Part shown: one piece after another, positions 4,873 through 11,077 of the stretch
Numbering within the stretch: the stretch's first letter is position 1
Layout: each line of letters starts with the position of its first letter
Assembly (NCBI GenBank): GCA_019058315.1
Contig: JAHPZH010000001.1
Location: 96,001 to 160,000 of the forward strand
Source: Candidatus Helarchaeota archaeon
GTDB taxonomy: Archaea > Asgardarchaeota > Lokiarchaeia > Helarchaeales > RDOG01
Direction of reading: 5' to 3'
Length of the DNA stretch: 64,000 bases
The notes under the pieces: model-generated
What the model was told of the DNA's origin: nothing
What the model saw: only the letters and a program-made list of their open reading frames with translations
Database searches by the model: none
Program-made: the position numbers and the translations under genes

Positions 4873-5565
4873 TCATACCTTTAAATCAAAAAACAAGTCA
4901 ATTCCATATTTATCATAAAGCTCATCAATCAGGTAAATCAATGGGTTTAAATGACTTTTATAACGATCCCAAACAAGATGAGTTGTTTTTTCTCTTCTTT
5001 GTGCAAAATGTAAGAATCCCTCGCTATCAAAACATGGATCTTTTGGTCGGGGCGTTACTTGAATCGTAGGAGGAACATCTGGATATTCTGCATTGAATAA
5101 AATTTTCGAAACTCTTACCACACCATCTCTCCATTTAGATGATACATAAATACCCTTTTCCGGGCGTTTTTTATCTATGTATTTCCATTCACTACCGTTT
5201 ATTTCCACTATGTATTTTAGATGGGTTTTAAACAACTCAGTTCCACTTTTAATTTTACTAGAAATACTCCCACCTATGGGTTCCGGAATCCAGTATATCT
5301 TATCTGTGTCTTGTGCTATTTCCCCTATCGTGTTGCGAAGAGATATTGGTACTTTTCGACCTTGTGTAATATAGTAAAGTTTTATTGTTAGCATGTTAAT
5401 TCCGACGTTTCTAACATTGCCATATCCTAAATTTAAAACGTCTAAGATTCGATCATTATATTTCCATAATAATCTACTGGCAACATCCCTGATAATCTCA
5501 TCTTCTTGAGATTCAACATAATCTGTGGTCCCAATAAGTGGATTAACCCAAGTTATTTCTTTCAA
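4873..5565 (-). CDS. ubiquitin-like domain (ending PEPIGG, aa 99) fused to an E2/UBC-fold domain
   Basis: aa 1-99 align with the ORF at 6522 (DKIYWxPEPIGG). The C-terminal part has UBC-like 'ILFNAEYPDVPP' and aligns with the ORF at 6870. Confidence 0.7.
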   Translation of the reverse strand: MKEITWVNPLIGTTDYVESQEDEIIRDVASRLLWKYNDRILDVLNLGYGNVRNVGINMLTIKLYYITQGRKVPISLRNTIGEIAQDTDKIYWIPEPIGGSISSKIKSGTELFKTHLKYIVEINGSEWKYIDKKRPEKGIYVSSKWRDGVVRVSKILFNAEYPDVPPTIQVTPRPKDPCFDSEGFLHFAQRREKTTHLVWDRYKSHLNPLIYLIDELYDKYGIDLFFDLKV

Positions 5566-5640
5566 TGTGTTTCCGTCTTTAATTTATTATCAATTATTTA
5601 GAAATTAAAATTAATATTTATAAATTAGGTTTTTAATTTG

Positions 5641-6405
5641 ATGAAAAGATTTTTCTTTGGTCCTGTTCTTTCTCGTAGATTGGGTTTTTCTTTAGGGATT
5701 GATATATTACCCGATAAAAAGACTTGTACTTTTGACTGTCTTTACTGTGAAATAGGAAAAACTCGACGAGTTACCTCCCCAAAAACCCGTTCTCCTTTCC
5801 TAATAGAAAATAAAAAGAATTTTGAATTACAATTAAGAAATATCTTATCTCAAGATATATTAATCGATACATTAACATTTGCAGGATATTCGGGTGAGGC
5901 AACATTAAATAGTGAATTAAATACATTTTTAAACATTACAAAATCTGTAAGATCTGACCTGCATAAAGAAAATATCCCAATATCCATTTTGACTAATTCC
6001 TCAACAATTAATTTTCCTGAAATTAGAAAAATATTAATGAATTTTGATAATATAGTTGCGAAATTAGATGTTGGAAATCAAGCTTCTTTTATGAAGGTGA
6101 ATCGTCCACATTTTTTAGTTCCACAAATTTCTGATATTATAAATGGTTTAAAGCAATTAAGGGAGGAGCTTGATAAGAATCGACTCGTTATTCAGACTCT
6201 TTTGTTTAGTGAAAATAATGATAGAAAAAACATTGATTCATTAATTGAAGCTTACAATATTATCAATCCAAATAAAATTCAACTTTACTCGATTGCCCGT
6301 CCACCCGCATATGCCGTAAAAAAAATAGATGGGCTTCAATTGGAACAGATAAAAAAGAATATGCAAGATGTATTAAAAACCAATATTAAAATTGAAACTT
6401 ATTAA
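5641..6405 (+). CDS. radical SAM Fe-S oxidoreductase (COG0731-like)
   Basis: FGPVLSRRLGFSLGIDI N-terminus, CTFDCLYC motif, LTNSS, AKLD. Confidence 0.85.
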   Translation: MKRFFFGPVLSRRLGFSLGIDILPDKKTCTFDCLYCEIGKTRRVTSPKTRSPFLIENKKNFELQLRNILSQDILIDTLTFAGYSGEATLNSELNTFLNITKSVRSDLHKENIPISILTNSSTINFPEIRKILMNFDNIVAKLDVGNQASFMKVNRPHFLVPQISDIINGLKQLREELDKNRLVIQTLLFSENNDRKNIDSLIEAYNIINPNKIQLYSIARPPAYAVKKIDGLQLEQIKKNMQDVLKTNIKIETY

Positions 6406-6521: not shown

Positions 6522-6830
6522 ATGCCAGAAATGACATATGTCTGCCCGCAAATAGGTAGTACAGATTATTTAGATTATGAAGAAGATACGACCTTCGAAG
6601 ATCAAATAAATGAACTAAAAGAGAAATATTTACGAGATATTCTTGATTACGTTCAGCAATTTCGAAATATACGTCAAAATATAGGATTAGATCAAATTAC
6701 TGTAAAGATACACTATATTGATGCTGAAGGTATCAAACAAACAATTGGACTTAAAACTTACGTTAAGGCAATGGCTGAACGTCATATTGATAAGATATAT
6801 TGGGAACCCGAACCCATTGGAGGGCATTAA
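6522..6830 (+). CDS. ubiquitin-like (beta-grasp) modifier precursor ending in GG-H
   Basis: 102 aa, C-terminus YWEPEPIGGH*. Paralogous to the N-terminus of 4873..5565, and near E2, JAB and E1 genes. Confidence 0.7.
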   Translation: MPEMTYVCPQIGSTDYLDYEEDTTFEDQINELKEKYLRDILDYVQQFRNIRQNIGLDQITVKIHYIDAEGIKQTIGLKTYVKAMAERHIDKIYWEPEPIGGH

Positions 6831-6869
6831 ACCAAACTTTTAATATAAGGGTATATCTAGAGGAAAAAA

Positions 6870-7232
6870 ATGCAGCAAACTTCTAAACAAATCTTTGCAA
6901 GTCATATTTACGATTTGACAGTTCGACCCGGTTATTATCGCTCTACATGGAAACTAATTAATAAAAAAATACCCTTAAAAGGAGCTTTCGGTCATTTTAT
7001 GGGCAAGGATTTTCGAGTAATTGTAATAAAAATCTTATTTAATTCAAAATATCCCGAAAATCCTCCAAAAATTATTAGCACTCCTCCTATCCGCGATGTT
7101 TGTTGGGATAATAAGGGTGTGTTACATTGGGCTAGATACGGGGGAGAGTTTGTATGGAGTAAATATAAAGATCACTCCAATCCATTAATTTATGTCGCAG
7201 ATGAAATTACTGAAAAATATAAAACCATGTAA
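6870..7232 (+). CDS. E2/UBC-fold protein with non-canonical active site
   Basis: 'IKILFNSKYPENPPKI' UBC signature, DVCWDNKGVLH in the HPN...C position, W..Y...NPL followed by a terminal helix. Has its own GAGG SD. Confidence 0.7.
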   Translation: MQQTSKQIFASHIYDLTVRPGYYRSTWKLINKKIPLKGAFGHFMGKDFRVIVIKILFNSKYPENPPKIISTPPIRDVCWDNKGVLHWARYGGEFVWSKYKDHSNPLIYVADEITEKYKTM

Positions 7233-7256: not shown

Positions 7257-8834
7257 TTACTTTTTAATTATTATTGCCACTAACACTAGAATTACTATCG
7301 CCATAGCACCAATTATTATCAAGAGAATAAGAGGATCAATTGGAAAACCCGCACCTGTCGGTATAGGTATAAAATTATCCATAGGTTCTGTAGACACTAA
7401 TGAAACTTTTTGTGCATATATATCATAATCACTTAAGCTTCTATTATCCTGCCACGTTATGATAGCAACTCCAGAACTAACGTAAATAATCTCATGATTT
7501 TCTTGCAAACCATATTCTGTACATACTGGCAGACCCTTACCAACATATTGCAAAATACCATTTTTATCGAGCATTTGTGCATAGATTGATCCATTAGCAT
7601 CTTCTTCTTTATCTATCCAAGAGATAAATGAATTTCCTGAGGAGTCGCAGCAAATCCTAGACTGTTGTTGATCACTGGGTGAAGTACAAACAGGGGTACC
7701 ATTATTTCTCCATAATGTGGTGCCTATTGGGTTAATTTTTTGAGTATAGATATCCTCCTCATAAATATTTCGTAAATCCTGCCATGTAATAATTGCATTT
7801 CCCTCACTATCACAGCAAATTTTTGGATAGAATTGGCTATATTCTGCTGTACAAATTGGTGTGCCATTGAGAGTCCAATAAACAGTACCAGTTGAGTCGA
7901 TTTTTTGTGCATATATATCTGTATATGTACCGTTTCTATTATCCACCCAAGTGATAATTGCATTACCAGAACTATCACAGCAAATATCAGGCCAATATTG
8001 ACTGTCAGTTGCATTACAAATTACAGTACCATTGTCTTGCAATTGTGAATGACCTGTAGAATTAATAAATTGACAATAGATATCGTTATCTGATGTTGTC
8101 ATATTTCTATAGTCTTGCCAAGTAATAATTGCGTTTCCTGCACCATAAACACTAATTTTTGGAAATGTTTGGATGTTTATAGCATTGCAAATTATTTTTC
8201 CGTTAGTTGTCCATTGGACAACTCCACTCGAATTAATTCTCTGGGCATGGATATTAGATGTTGCAAATTCATCATTTATCCATGTAAGAATCGCACCGCC
8301 TAAATTATCGCTGCAAATTTCTATCCTTGATTCATCATTAGGCAAACCAGTAATTTGCACACCGTTGGCAGTCCATTGCGTAATCCCGTTTGCGTCCACT
8401 CTTTGAGCTTTAATATTTTGAGTATCTTCCCATGCGATGATTGCCCCCCCAGAACCATCAGAACATATCTGGGGAAGAGTTTGAGAACCAGGAGAGTTAC
8501 AAATTAATGTGCCGTTAACATCCCATAATGGATTCCCATTTGAATCGATTCTTTGAACATAAATACTAGAAATGTCTCTGGAATCCGCCCAAGTAATAAT
8601 TGCACCACCAGTTCCATCACTGCATATTTCAGGATTATATTGGTCTTGTGGCGTTTGTACACATACAGGTGTACCATTAGCTGCCCATTGCGTACTTAAA
8701 CCATTAGCCTTGAGTTTAGATTTCTCATCAATTTTTAAAAGTAAGACATTTTGATTGCTAAACCCTGTATATGAATTTATAGCTAAAATGGAAAACATCA
8801 AGATTGGGATTAAAATTAAAAACCTTTTCTTCAT
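7257..8834 (-). CDS. membrane-anchored secreted beta-propeller repeat protein
   Basis: N-terminal signal-like segment, eight ~55-60 aa repeats (P.ICxDxxG.AIITW.D...DIYAQK), C-terminal TM helix followed by KK. Confidence 0.75.
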   Translation of the reverse strand: MKKRFLILIPILMFSILAINSYTGFSNQNVLLLKIDEKSKLKANGLSTQWAANGTPVCVQTPQDQYNPEICSDGTGGAIITWADSRDISSIYVQRIDSNGNPLWDVNGTLICNSPGSQTLPQICSDGSGGAIIAWEDTQNIKAQRVDANGITQWTANGVQITGLPNDESRIEICSDNLGGAILTWINDEFATSNIHAQRINSSGVVQWTTNGKIICNAINIQTFPKISVYGAGNAIITWQDYRNMTTSDNDIYCQFINSTGHSQLQDNGTVICNATDSQYWPDICCDSSGNAIITWVDNRNGTYTDIYAQKIDSTGTVYWTLNGTPICTAEYSQFYPKICCDSEGNAIITWQDLRNIYEEDIYTQKINPIGTTLWRNNGTPVCTSPSDQQQSRICCDSSGNSFISWIDKEEDANGSIYAQMLDKNGILQYVGKGLPVCTEYGLQENHEIIYVSSGVAIITWQDNRSLSDYDIYAQKVSLVSTEPMDNFIPIPTGAGFPIDPLILLIIIGAMAIVILVLVAIIIKK

Positions 8835-8949
8835 TTTTAACAAATCCAATTTTTATTAAAATATATCAAATATACTGAGGTTATAACATATAAATTGGAG
8901 TAATAGTTCATAGAGAAATAGAATAATTAAGTTAGAAAGTCGTGTAGAA

Positions 8950-10023
8950 ATGCGAGTAATTATAGATTCGTCGGTAATTGAATCATGTAAGCAAACAATT
9001 CAAGAATGTTATGGTGAAAAAGCGTTTAAAGAAGTAGGGGGGTATATTTTAGGAATGTTTGACGGCGAAAATTTCCAAGTTAAATCCCTTTATCTTGATA
9101 AATATGCTGAATCGACTTCTATCAGAATTAAACTAAGCGTTGATGCATTCCATGAAGTTGAGGAAATACTTTCCCAATCTCCTGAAATGATGTATATTGG
9201 GACATGGCATGTTCATCCTGGGACAGATAAACCCGCATACTCAAATGTTGATGTTTCAACTCTATTTTTAGAACGGGTAATTATAGACACAGATAATCCT
9301 GAAAGTTTGAAATGCCCAAAGATTCATATAATTTTTAATAATTCTCTAACTGAATATAGTTGTTATACTATGGATATATTTTTTAATTTTTTATGCGAAC
9401 CTCTTGATTCATCTGTTGCCAAAAATTTAGTTGAAGCTGAATTGCTTGAAATTGGGCTAGATGCCCTTACGGAATCTAAAACCTTGCTAAAACTAGAAAC
9501 TCTTGAAAGTTATATCAATTTACAAAAAAATATCGAAGAAGTGTATAATAATCTCGATTTAATTTCTGACCAAATCAATTTTGCACTTGACTTTTTTAAT
9601 GAACTTGAATGGTATAATAAAGTTGAAAATAAAATCGAAAAAATAATTAAGAATGAGATTAAAAATGGAGAAAGAATTGGAGTAATCTCTTCTGAAAACG
9701 AGAAAAAAATCGAAAGCTTGAAATATAGACCTAAGAATATAAAAAATTCATATACAGATGGATCTTTAGTAGGTTTTTGGGTATTATTTCCATACGAAAG
9801 TATCAGCGATATGTTTTTGAAAATTTTTTATGCTAATTTCTTCAAAAAAATTGAGACTGAACCTGGAGATGTCTTCTTATTCTTCCTAGTTCAAAAAATT
9901 AAGGAAGAAATCATGATTAAACCGTTTTTTTTAAATTTCACATCATTTGAAGGAATATCATATATAGAATTAGAAATGACTTTGATTGAGGATGACAATG
10001 AAAATAATGTTTCAGAATCCTGA
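8950..10023 (+). CDS. JAB/MPN+ (JAMM) metalloprotease with C-terminal extension
   Basis: EVGGYILG and GTWHVHPGTDKPAYSNVD (E...HxH...S..D). Confidence 0.85.
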   Translation: MRVIIDSSVIESCKQTIQECYGEKAFKEVGGYILGMFDGENFQVKSLYLDKYAESTSIRIKLSVDAFHEVEEILSQSPEMMYIGTWHVHPGTDKPAYSNVDVSTLFLERVIIDTDNPESLKCPKIHIIFNNSLTEYSCYTMDIFFNFLCEPLDSSVAKNLVEAELLEIGLDALTESKTLLKLETLESYINLQKNIEEVYNNLDLISDQINFALDFFNELEWYNKVENKIEKIIKNEIKNGERIGVISSENEKKIESLKYRPKNIKNSYTDGSLVGFWVLFPYESISDMFLKIFYANFFKKIETEPGDVFLFFLVQKIKEEIMIKPFFLNFTSFEGISYIELEMTLIEDDNENNVSES

Positions 10024-11077
10024 TACGGGTGAAACAATATATATCGAGGATGAGGAGCTTCTTATCAGAGATATTGCCAATAAAATAATGAAAGAATACA
10101 ATCTAGAAAAACCACCAATCTTCTTCACCCTTATGAAAGAAGACCCAGTATCAGAAACTTATCTAGAAGAAGATGATAAATTAAAAACAATTAATGAAGA
10201 AAAATTGGATGTAAAGACACCAATATGGTGGCGATCGTCAGAAATTGATCTAGATTTAATTTATAAACTTCGAACAGAACGCTATGATAGATCGGGTTAT
10301 GAGCTAGAAAAAATCGGAAAAACCAAGGTATTAATTGCAGGTGTGGGATTATTAGGAGCGGATATTGCGTTTGATTGCGCAGTTTTAGGAATAAAGGACC
10401 TTACAATAATTGATTATGGGTCTGTAGATTGGTTTAATATCTATCGACAAAGTCTCTATTCCAAAAAAGATGTATTTAAATCGAAAGTTGAAGTGGCAAA
10501 AGAAAATCTCGAGGATATGGGGGGTGTAAATGTTAAATCATTAAAAATTGAGATTCCAAGTTTTATTTATCTGCCAGAAGATAAAAGTATAATACAAAAT
10601 TCCATTTTAAAAATTGAGCCTGAAGTTAAAAAATGTGATATAATAATTACTGCTCTTGATACATTCAGCGCTAGAATGATAATGCAAACTTTAGCTTTAG
10701 CAAATGATAAAATCCTTATTAATACGGCGGCTGGTCTAGTAGGTGGGGTAGTTCAATTAGTGAGAATTAAGCAAAATGATCCTTGCTTGGCATGTGGTAT
10801 TTATTTTGATAGAAATCAAGATGTGGGTGCGTGCACTTTGGCATCGTTTGGTACTCCTAAAATCATATCTGGAATTACAATGGAAATTTTGACAAATCTG
10901 ATTGAAGAAAGAGAAATCAAATATAACCATTTTAAATATATTCCCCAAACTTACCAAATAGAACAAAGTAATTTTATAAAAGGCAAAGAGTTCTGTGATT
11001 TTTGCGATAGGGAGAAAGGAATTATATTTAAATATAAAAATGGAGAAAAAAAAGCCCTAATTGATTGGTTATATTGA
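9998..11077 (+). CDS. E1-like (ThiF/MoeB) adenylating enzyme with N-terminal Ubl-like domain
   Basis: GVGLLG, DYGSVDWFNIYRQ, SKVEVAK, DTFSAR, two Zn CxxC motifs (PCLAC, FCDFC) and a candidate catalytic Cys (VGACTL). Overlaps the JAB gene. Confidence 0.88.
   Translation: MKIMFQNPDTGETIYIEDEELLIRDIANKIMKEYNLEKPPIFFTLMKEDPVSETYLEEDDKLKTINEEKLDVKTPIWWRSSEIDLDLIYKLRTERYDRSGYELEKIGKTKVLIAGVGLLGADIAFDCAVLGIKDLTIIDYGSVDWFNIYRQSLYSKKDVFKSKVEVAKENLEDMGGVNVKSLKIEIPSFIYLPEDKSIIQNSILKIEPEVKKCDIIITALDTFSARMIMQTLALANDKILINTAAGLVGGVVQLVRIKQNDPCLACGIYFDRNQDVGACTLASFGTPKIISGITMEILTNLIEEREIKYNHFKYIPQTYQIEQSNFIKGKEFCDFCDREKGIIFKYKNGEKKALIDWLY

Follow-up and report, generated by a model that had tools for sequence, protein, structure and literature searches.

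A predicted ubiquitin fold at the N-terminus of an Atg7-like E1 from a Helarchaeales conjugation cassette, a possible E2-recruiting module

In the evolution of ubiquitin signalling, the step by which activating enzymes (E1s) came to recognise their conjugating enzymes (E2s) is still open. Recruitment of the E2 by a ubiquitin-fold domain (UFD) or by the N-terminal domain of Atg7 is textbook knowledge, and the known routes comprise the C-terminal UFD of canonical E1s, which contacts mainly helix 1 and the strand 1-strand 2 loop of the E2, the unrelated N-terminal or linker domain of Atg7 and Cap2, and BilD, in which no such domain is used. Atg7 has been linked to the bacterial Cap2 (6a/6b) E1s, and in both the adenylation domain is preceded by a domain that positions the E2 (10.1101/2022.03.31.486616). 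In addition, an N-terminal ubiquitin-like domain on ThiF proteins of thiamine operons, for example in Campylobacter jejuni, was noted in 2006 (Iyer, Burroughs and Aravind, PMC1779556). Here we describe a ThiF-family E1 encoded in a 64,000-nucleotide stretch of a Candidatus Helarchaeota genome (contig JAHPZH010000001.1, positions 96,001 to 160,000; the window in what follows), together with the JAB metalloprotease, the ubiquitin-like proteins (Ubls) and the small E2s that accompany it. We give an even chance to the reading that the N-terminal beta-grasp of this E1 is the E2-recruiting module of an Atg7-type enzyme, probably derived from the system's own Ubl. In the papers searched and read, neither the Helarchaeales cassette nor any conjugation system that combines an E2 with an E1 bearing an N-terminal ubiquitin fold was described. 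The features on which the argument turns are the following:

9986/9998/10007..11077, plus strand: open reading frame of the ThiF-family E1, with three possible starts
9998..10240, plus strand: predicted N-terminal ubiquitin-like beta-grasp of the E1, residues 1-78 of protein P0001 (10007..10240) plus an MKI leader
10241..11077, plus strand: linker helix, adenylation domain and C-terminal subdomain of the E1 (Pfam ThiF, residues 100-304)
6522..6830, plus strand: free Ubl (lineage A), 102 aa, ending ...YWEPEPIGG-H (GG codons 6819..6824)
6870..7232, plus strand: minimal E2-like protein, 120 aa (P0005), with an invariant Cys78 (7101..7103) and a YPxxPP motif
4873..5565, minus strand: Ubl-E2 fusion (lineage B), 230 aa, with an internal ...PEPIGG followed by S (GG codons 5269..5274; E2 Cys178 at 5032..5034)

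The window has a G+C content of ~31% and sits in a 5.8 Mb genome of 12 contigs. The closest protein homologues carry the source names Helarchaeota or Promethearchaeota (Asgard archaea), and the assignment to the order Helarchaeales is taken from these source names. Among the three possible starts of the E1, the ATG at 9998 ('MKIMFQNPD...'), with a GAGG 6 nt upstream, agrees with the starts of the homologues; E1 residues are numbered here from the ATG at 10007, which gives the 356-aa protein P0001.

The E1 N-terminal domain is, as modelled, a ubiquitin-like beta-grasp of ~78 residues. In the AlphaFold2 model of the full-length E1, built on a 32-sequence alignment (predicted local distance difference test, pLDDT, 88.8; predicted template-modelling score, pTM, 0.82), the N-terminus runs strand-strand-helix-strand-strand-helix-strand, and residues 1-82 modelled alone keep these elements unchanged at a pLDDT of 94. 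Foldseek searches with the domain returned ubiquitin-fold chains only, with weak E-values, and its ESM Atlas neighbours (TM 0.64-0.78) belong to the RA, RAWUL and ubiquitin families and to an Asgard 'ubiquitin-like' cluster. The sole Pfam family matched is RA_2, weakly and by 11 of 30 E1 N-termini. The Ubl-type fold that the initial annotation had read from the letters is thus upheld by AlphaFold2, Foldseek and the ESM Atlas, and so is its remark that this copy is GG-less: the Gly-Gly tail is absent in 32/32 aligned E1s, where the sequence ...TPIWW(R/Q)SSE... runs straight into the adenylation domain. The free or exposable C-terminal Gly(-Gly) that follows the last strand of a conjugatable Ubl is lacking. 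Thirteen residues of the domain are invariant (Q3, N4, D6, T7, P36, P37, T41, P47, E55, L59, L67, P72 and W74). Sequence homologues of the E1 numbered 48 among 5.8 billion clusters, the complete ones being 357-378 aa long and all spanning the N-terminal domain, which lies immediately before the adenylation domain in every case, distant relatives included.

A complex of this domain with the cassette E2 was predicted in silico. The E2-like protein has no match to Pfam UQ_con; its profile, built from 15 homologues in which Cys78 and the YPxxPP motif are invariant, matched only UBC/UEV chains in the PDB, and these weakly (best E 5e-4). The multimer prediction that the initial annotation had put forward as a check was run with the 120-aa E2, using the alignment of E1 N-termini (A3) for the domain and the alignment of E2 homologues (A5) for its partner. 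The complex reached an interface score (ipSAE, interaction prediction score from aligned errors) of 0.61 (0.61, 0.56 and 0.64 in separate runs), whereas the best of 3 controls scored 0.00; the mark for this score is one that 58/80 solved complexes and 2/110 mismatched pairs reached. At least 94% of contacts agree between the runs, and the partner E2 has a pLDDT of 86-88. The domain is predicted to make contact through its sheet face (residues 1, 3, 5, 7-8, 10, 42, 44, 47-48, 50, 67-68, 70-72 and 74), and the E2 through its four-stranded sheet (residues 28, 30-31, 40, 42, 47-50, 52, 54, 56, 69 and 71-72), that is, the 'backside' surface away from Cys78. Six of the 13 invariant domain residues fall in the predicted interface, and entropy is lower there than in the rest of the domain (0.80 versus 1.45 bits; one-sided Mann-Whitney p 0.009, indicative only, as kin are not independent). 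The complex model supports binding of the domain to the E2 as a prediction, and in this respect it agrees with the proposed N-terminal analogue of a UFD; the predicted contact is to the backside, not to helix 1 as is typical of a UFD.

The second line of evidence is the relation between the E1 N-terminus and the Ubls of the same system. The string 'TWVNPLIGTTDYVESQEDEIIRDVASRLLWKYN...KIYW', which the initial annotation had compared with the E1 N-terminus, is real, and its source is the N-terminal half of the Ubl-E2 fusion (4873..5565, minus strand), not the free Ubl; with 41% identity (E 2e-23), these Ubls are evidently paralogous. In pairwise BLASTP comparisons the E1 N-terminus shares 13/30 identities with the fusion Ubl (E 6e-6), and its match to the free Ubl has an E-value of 0.19. 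In a six-frame search of the 5.8 Mb genome with the fusion Ubl, the E1 N-terminus came third and last (E 0.107), after both Ubls. For profile comparison, family alignments were made of 30 E1 N-termini (A3), 10 operon-type Ubls (A2) and 6 fusion-type Ubls (A4). Comparison of A3 with A4 by hhalign gave a probability of 82% and a P-value of 1.1e-5 over 39 columns, and none of 200 column-shuffled A4 controls equalled the real score (best 24.6 versus 33.9); the match of A3 to A2 was weaker (P 0.002). Five canonical ubiquitin-like proteins of the same genome matched the E1 N-termini poorly (P >= 0.039), and therefore the likeness is specific to the cognate Ubls. The aligned part comprises strand 1, strand 2 and helix 1 only, with a motif xNPxxGxTxY...IRDIAxxxxxKY kept in both families. 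The profile-profile alignment proposed at the outset gave a match to both lineages, one that stops after helix 1: the second half of the domain stays unaligned, and the supposed resemblance of 'PIWW' to 'KIYW' finds no statistical support, as neither global nor relaxed hhalign runs pair the two. The likeness of the E1 N-terminus to its cognate Ubls is, judged from these profiles, beyond chance but partial.

The body of the enzyme was compared with known E1s. Pfam ThiF matches residues 100-304 with an E-value of 3e-31, and the protein has the hallmarks of E1-like adenylating enzymes of the ThiF/MoeB/Atg7 superfamily, namely a Rossmann-type domain, a Gly-rich loop, Arg/Gln and Asp motifs and CxxC...CxxC. 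By sequence profile its best solved relatives are Atg7 (E 3e-18) and UBA1 (1e-12), followed by UBA5, MccB, ThiF and MoeB. An invariant Cys276 (10832..10834) lies in a crossover loop modelled at low confidence, 13 residues past the first CxxC, and its counterpart in the alignment is the Cys within the 'qmCTv' motif of the yeast Atg7 crossover loop, where the literature places the catalytic Cys507; Cys276 is a candidate thioester cysteine on the strength of this alignment. Cys260, Cys263, Cys330 and Cys333 (10784-10795 and 10994-11005) form a putative zinc-binding tetrad. Neither a helical Cys domain, nor a second (inactive) adenylation domain, nor a C-terminal UFD is present in the E1; the last part of its model is a short subdomain, alignable with the C-terminal end of the Atg7 chain (to residue 593). 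Among NCBIfam models, those of ThiF and MoeB outscore that of Atg7, all of them far under their cut-offs (57 bits versus a cut-off of 571 for the Atg7 model TIGR01381); Pfam ATG7_N has no match in the E1, whose N-terminal domain is a beta-grasp. The best PADLOC matches are to Cap2 'E1-E2' models. We conclude that the E1 resembles, and probably works like, an Atg7-type enzyme, membership of the Atg7 family being excluded, and that it is presumably a homodimeric, non-canonical Ubl-activating enzyme of the Atg7/Cap2 type with a single adenylation domain.

The E1 is part of a cassette that recurs throughout the order. Besides the genes listed above, the following features of the window and of the genome belong to the comparison:

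8950..10023, plus strand: JAB/JAMM peptidase, with E28, H87xH89 and D100 and a ~230-residue C-terminal extension
7257..8849, minus strand: repeat-rich, propeller-like, membrane-anchored protein between the E2 and JAB genes, outside the conserved cassette
5638..6405, plus strand: radical S-adenosylmethionine (SAM) protein (Pfam Radical_SAM E 2.6e-6, slightly short of the cut-off)
G000:C10:103165-104834, C2:154995-157174 and C6:266123-271061: canonical ubiquitin clusters elsewhere in the same genome

Of the 161 genomes of the class that were compared, all those in the window's order (7/7) have the E1; one further genome of the class has a weak match to the adenylation domain only (E 1.5e-21, residues 98-319). 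The gene order Ubl-E2-JAB-E1 is found in six relatives, fully contiguous in four of them and with other genes between JAB and E1 in two (L016 and L017). In the window, the 3' end of the JAB gene and the start of the E1 gene overlap by 26 nt. An 80%-identical relative (L046) has the window's arrangement, with the radical SAM gene and a divergent Ubl-E2 fusion, minus the propeller-like gene, which is also missing at this position in L012-L017. As the relatives lack it between E2 and JAB, the propeller gene is therefore a local insertion, seen in this genome alone. The initial annotation had tied the JAB-E1 pair to the Ubl and E2 genes across this gene by means of the shared motif; the cassette order in the relatives confirms the association on firmer ground. 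In the 530-aa product of the inserted gene, about nine repeats of ~45 residues (C..S.GGAII.W.D...) are combined with a transmembrane helix at the C-terminus, and no Pfam family was found in it.

The components differ in how readily they are recognised. The free Ubl has no match in Pfam, NCBIfam or PADLOC, its PDB profile matches are irrelevant, no usable ESM Atlas match was obtained, and a word-indexed search returned just 2 close homologues; across 10 homologues of lineage A, ...EPEPIGG is conserved, and between 1 and about 22 residues come after it. The cassette E2 likewise matched nothing in Pfam, NCBIfam or PADLOC. The parts known to PADLOC are the generic ones, E1 and JAB, the JAB protein matching its JAB models with an E-value of 1.6e-10 and Pfam Prok-JAB with 0.011. 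The same genome holds at least 3 clusters of canonical ubiquitin, UQ_con E2 and ThiF E1, recognisable with Pfam, and eight ThiF-family genes in all; the cassette is an additional, very divergent system beside these canonical Asgard clusters.

Lineage B of the Ubl and E2 is likewise present in 7/7 genomes of the order, just upstream of the cassette in the window and away from it in the six relatives G001-G006 (loci L024-L028), where it is fused in four (in one, that of L025, with two stops) and split into adjacent genes in two. Since all 7 genomes have lineage B, a single E1 and a single JAB stand opposite two Ubl/E2 pairs.

Beyond the order, related cassettes were found as fused and unfused forms. 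On contigs of two Cloacimonadota-binned metagenome-assembled genomes (L036), the E1 P0059 belongs to a set of Ubl-E2 fusion, JAB and beta-grasp-E1, followed by a membrane protein. P0061 is a 672-aa JAB-beta-grasp-E1 triple fusion beside an E2 and a Ubl that ends in EPYGG-stop, and a search for longer proteins yielded a second such triple fusion of 685 aa (P0065). In these two fusions the domain is internal, and therefore it is no modifier there. When 1.84 billion representative proteins were searched with a profile of the N-terminal domain, there were 7 matches, comprising 6 E1s or E1 fragments and 1 spurious ankyrin protein, and no free-standing GG-tailed relative of the domain was found among these representatives. 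The occurrences outside Asgard archaea are L036, on the 5-6 kb contigs putatively binned to Cloacimonadota, with GIY-YIG and POTRA neighbours, and L035 and L048, which are unassigned read-archive contigs; this sporadic distribution suggests horizontal transfer. Helarchaeota viruses have been reported to carry ThiF-like genes (10.1101/2021.07.29.454249), and no relative of the present E1 was found on viral contigs.

Taken together, these data allow a working model to be proposed. By analogy with BilC and with the cleavage of BubAB by BubCD, the JAB protein would trim the residues past the Gly-Gly of the free Ubl and cut the Ubl-E2 fusion. The adenylation domain would then adenylate the Ubl C-terminus and hand the Ubl to Cys276 of the crossover loop, as the conserved residues and the alignment with Atg7 suggest. 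The sheet face of the beta-grasp, with its invariant Q3, T7, P47, L67, P72 and W74, is predicted in silico to bind the small E2 across its four-stranded sheet, so that the docked E2 would be held beside the E1 active site for transfer of the Ubl to E2 Cys78, a thioester step that may take place in trans within an E1 dimer. The beta-grasp would thereby stand in for the C-terminal UFD of canonical E1s and for the Atg7 N-terminal domain, and a single E1 would serve two Ubl/E2 pairs. The domain itself most probably arose when the system's own Ubl was duplicated and the copy shed its helix-1 insert and GG tail, an origin to which the partial profile match points.

Several observations weigh against E2 recruitment by a domain derived from the Ubl. 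BilD binds its E2 through the adenylation domain and a zinc loop, with no extra domain needed (10.1101/2023.09.26.559546). The predicted binding draws its support from the model's own confidence; the docking score may reflect likeness to the ubiquitin-E2 and SUMO-E2 backside complexes that are frequent in the PDB, and the docking controls were unrelated proteins rather than other beta-grasp or ubiquitin folds. The link to the Ubls spans just 39 columns, plain hidden Markov model searches (HMMER) of the whole genome with either family did not find the other, and BLASTP revealed no likeness between the E1 N-termini of distant systems and their own Ubls. The initial claim that the domain belongs to the same Ubl family is accordingly narrowed to a specific profile match up to helix 1. 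RA-like and FERM-F1 folds, moreover, match the domain about as well as ubiquitin does. Pressed further, these points would make the domain an unrelated beta-grasp, for example an RA- or TGS-like adaptor or solubility domain, with a convergent or chance likeness to the Ubls and an artefactual docking; the P-value of 0.002 against the operon Ubl and the standing of RA_2 as the only family match would fit such a domain. We nevertheless consider it quite unlikely, as no shuffled control in 200 matched the profile score, the five other ubiquitins of the genome show no likeness, the xNPxxGxTxY...IRDIAxxxxxKY motif is conserved in both families, and the domain is strictly conserved in all occurrences of the E1.

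Two further explanations accept the kinship with the Ubl and assign the domain another partner. It could be a pseudo-substrate or regulatory domain, a tail-less Ubl copy that sits on the Ubl site of the adenylation domain or on the dimer partner, in cis or in trans, and that gates the real Ubls, stabilises the dimer or aids binding of the second Ubl instead of recruiting the E2. The likeness to the cognate Ubl over strand 1, strand 2 and helix 1 agrees with this, the full-length pTM together with a high linker pLDDT suggests a fixed place on the E1 body, and ThiF proteins with an N-terminal Ubl-like domain are known alongside solo ThiS (PMC1779556). However, the domain has no C-terminal tail to offer the active site, and its conserved sheet face is the very face predicted to hold the E2, so that we regard a pseudo-substrate role as unlikely. 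Alternatively, an uncleavable Ubl mimic could keep the JAB protein on the E1 and couple Ubl maturation to activation, given that Ubl folds are bound by JAB enzymes, that the JAB and E1 genes overlap or abut except where other genes intervene (L016 and L017), and that the two are joined through the beta-grasp in P0061 and P0065. In these fusions, however, a tether would be redundant and the domain persists nonetheless, and in the solved JAB-Ubl complexes 8TYX and 8TYY it is the Ubl tail that occupies the cleavage site, a tail that the domain lacks; a tethering role therefore appears very unlikely. With regard to E2 recruitment, it should be added that the cognate Ubl might also dock at the same E2 surface.

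Further observations concern the partners of the E1. Residues ~125-357 of the JAB protein form the conserved extension of ~230 residues, which has no family match and is retained in shortened form in the JAB-beta-grasp-E1 fusions. The radical SAM gene (CxxxCxxC, ~255 aa) adjoins the Ubl gene also in L015:4012-4818, L046:3210-3974 and L047:2371-3135, and its product may modify the Ubl or a target. In the distant versions of the cassette, a membrane protein gene follows the E1 (L035:3431-4165, L036:4178-4939 and L048:6264-7505). The N-terminal ~80 residues of its product are Ubl-like by eye (...TFxDI...FYW/FWIY...) and precede a transmembrane segment; its outer domains comprise LysM in L035 (Pfam) and a sulfatase-modifying-factor-like domain in L048 (by eye), and in L036 only membrane segments are seen. 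This protein may be a fifth component or a target.

In addition, the junction between the Ubl and E2 genes is unusual in seven relatives (L012:8240-8300, L013-L017 and L047:3540-3640), where the E2 lacks an ATG, GTG or TTG upstream of the conserved block 'ISK(R/K)xFxEH'. In these relatives the E2 is read in the +1 frame relative to the Ubl, with an overlap at the Ubl tail, and a conserved ATT, ATC or ATA stands exactly 8 nt after a GGAGG formed by the Gly-Gly codons of the Ubl (GGGGG in L014). The diglycine codons of the Ubl thus seem to double as a Shine-Dalgarno site for a non-canonical E2 start. A +1 frameshift that would yield a Ubl-E2 fusion was judged less likely than initiation at this ATT/ATC/ATA. 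The window (6819..6872) and L046 instead have a spacer, a separate GAGG and an ATG for the E2.

If the E2-recruiting role and the origin from the Ubl are correct, a tail-less copy of the modifier at the N-terminus would be a separate and very simple way to arrive at a 'UFD', taken independently among the archaea that are nearest to eukaryotes. Its small size (E1 356 aa, E2 120 aa, Ubl 102 aa), its two Ubl/E2 pairs and its natural fused and split forms should make the system easy to reconstitute. Because its Ubl and E2 are invisible to Pfam, systems of this kind are missed in surveys.

The cassette was compared with the described systems. With the Bil systems it shares the gene order Ubl-E2-JAB-E1 (10.1101/2023.09.26.559546), with Bil and Bub a Ubl that has residues beyond the conserved Gly and an occurrence on bacterial (Cloacimonadota-binned) contigs, and with Type I Bub the habit of Ubl-E2 and JAB-E1 fusion, BubCD cutting BubAB after Gly (PMC11601596). 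In contrast, BilD consists of an inactive and an active adenylation domain (IAD+AAD) with a helical Cys domain and has no Ubl-fold domain, whereas BubCD lacks a catalytic Cys, Bub has DUF6527, and the present E1 has its invariant crossover-loop Cys; a beta-grasp before the adenylation domain has been reported for neither. With its single adenylation domain the cassette thus falls outside BilABCD and Bub, gene order and fusion habits being all that is common. The ThiF of the C. jejuni type is similar in bearing an N-terminal ubiquitin-like domain on the adenylation domain and in having another Ubl, a solo one, encoded in its operon, but it belongs to sulfur-carrier (thiamine) systems that have no E2, no JAB and no E2-binding role.

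As in canonical E1s, a non-conjugatable ubiquitin-fold domain is carried on the E1, here predicted to bind the cognate E2. The differences are that the domain is N-terminal, on a single adenylation domain without IAD, FCCH or SCCH, and that the predicted contact with the E2 backside resembles non-covalent ubiquitin- or SUMO-E2 complexes. Because the catalytic body of the E1 is Atg7-like, the Atg7 N-terminal domain and the Cap2 linker offer a closer architectural parallel than the UFD, both being extra domains N-terminal to the adenylation domain. Similarly to Atg7, the candidate catalytic Cys lies on a crossover loop with no helical Cys domain, and one E1 faces two E2s and two Ubls, which in the Atg7 system are Atg3/Atg10 and Atg8/Atg12 (10.1101/2022.03.31.486616). 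Unlike in the Atg7 system, the N-terminal domain is a ubiquitin fold of ~80 residues rather than a fold of ~290 residues, the cassette E2s are minimal and UBC-like, with no detected likeness to Atg3 or Atg10, and the protease is a JAB metalloprotease rather than an Atg4-type cysteine protease. A review has stated that no homologue of the Atg7 catalytic domain is found in Archaea or Bacteria (PMC11354881), a statement that the present E1, like Cap2, qualifies at the level of the closest structural relative. That the cassette is an archaeal counterpart, possibly a relative, of autophagy-type machinery, with an Atg7-like homodimeric E1, E2 recruitment in trans, two E2s and two Ubls, strikes us as decidedly improbable; if the parallel with Atg7 did reflect common descent, it would illustrate how a modifier can supply the material for a domain that recruits E2s, and it would place Atg7-type Ubl conjugation within the Asgard archaea.

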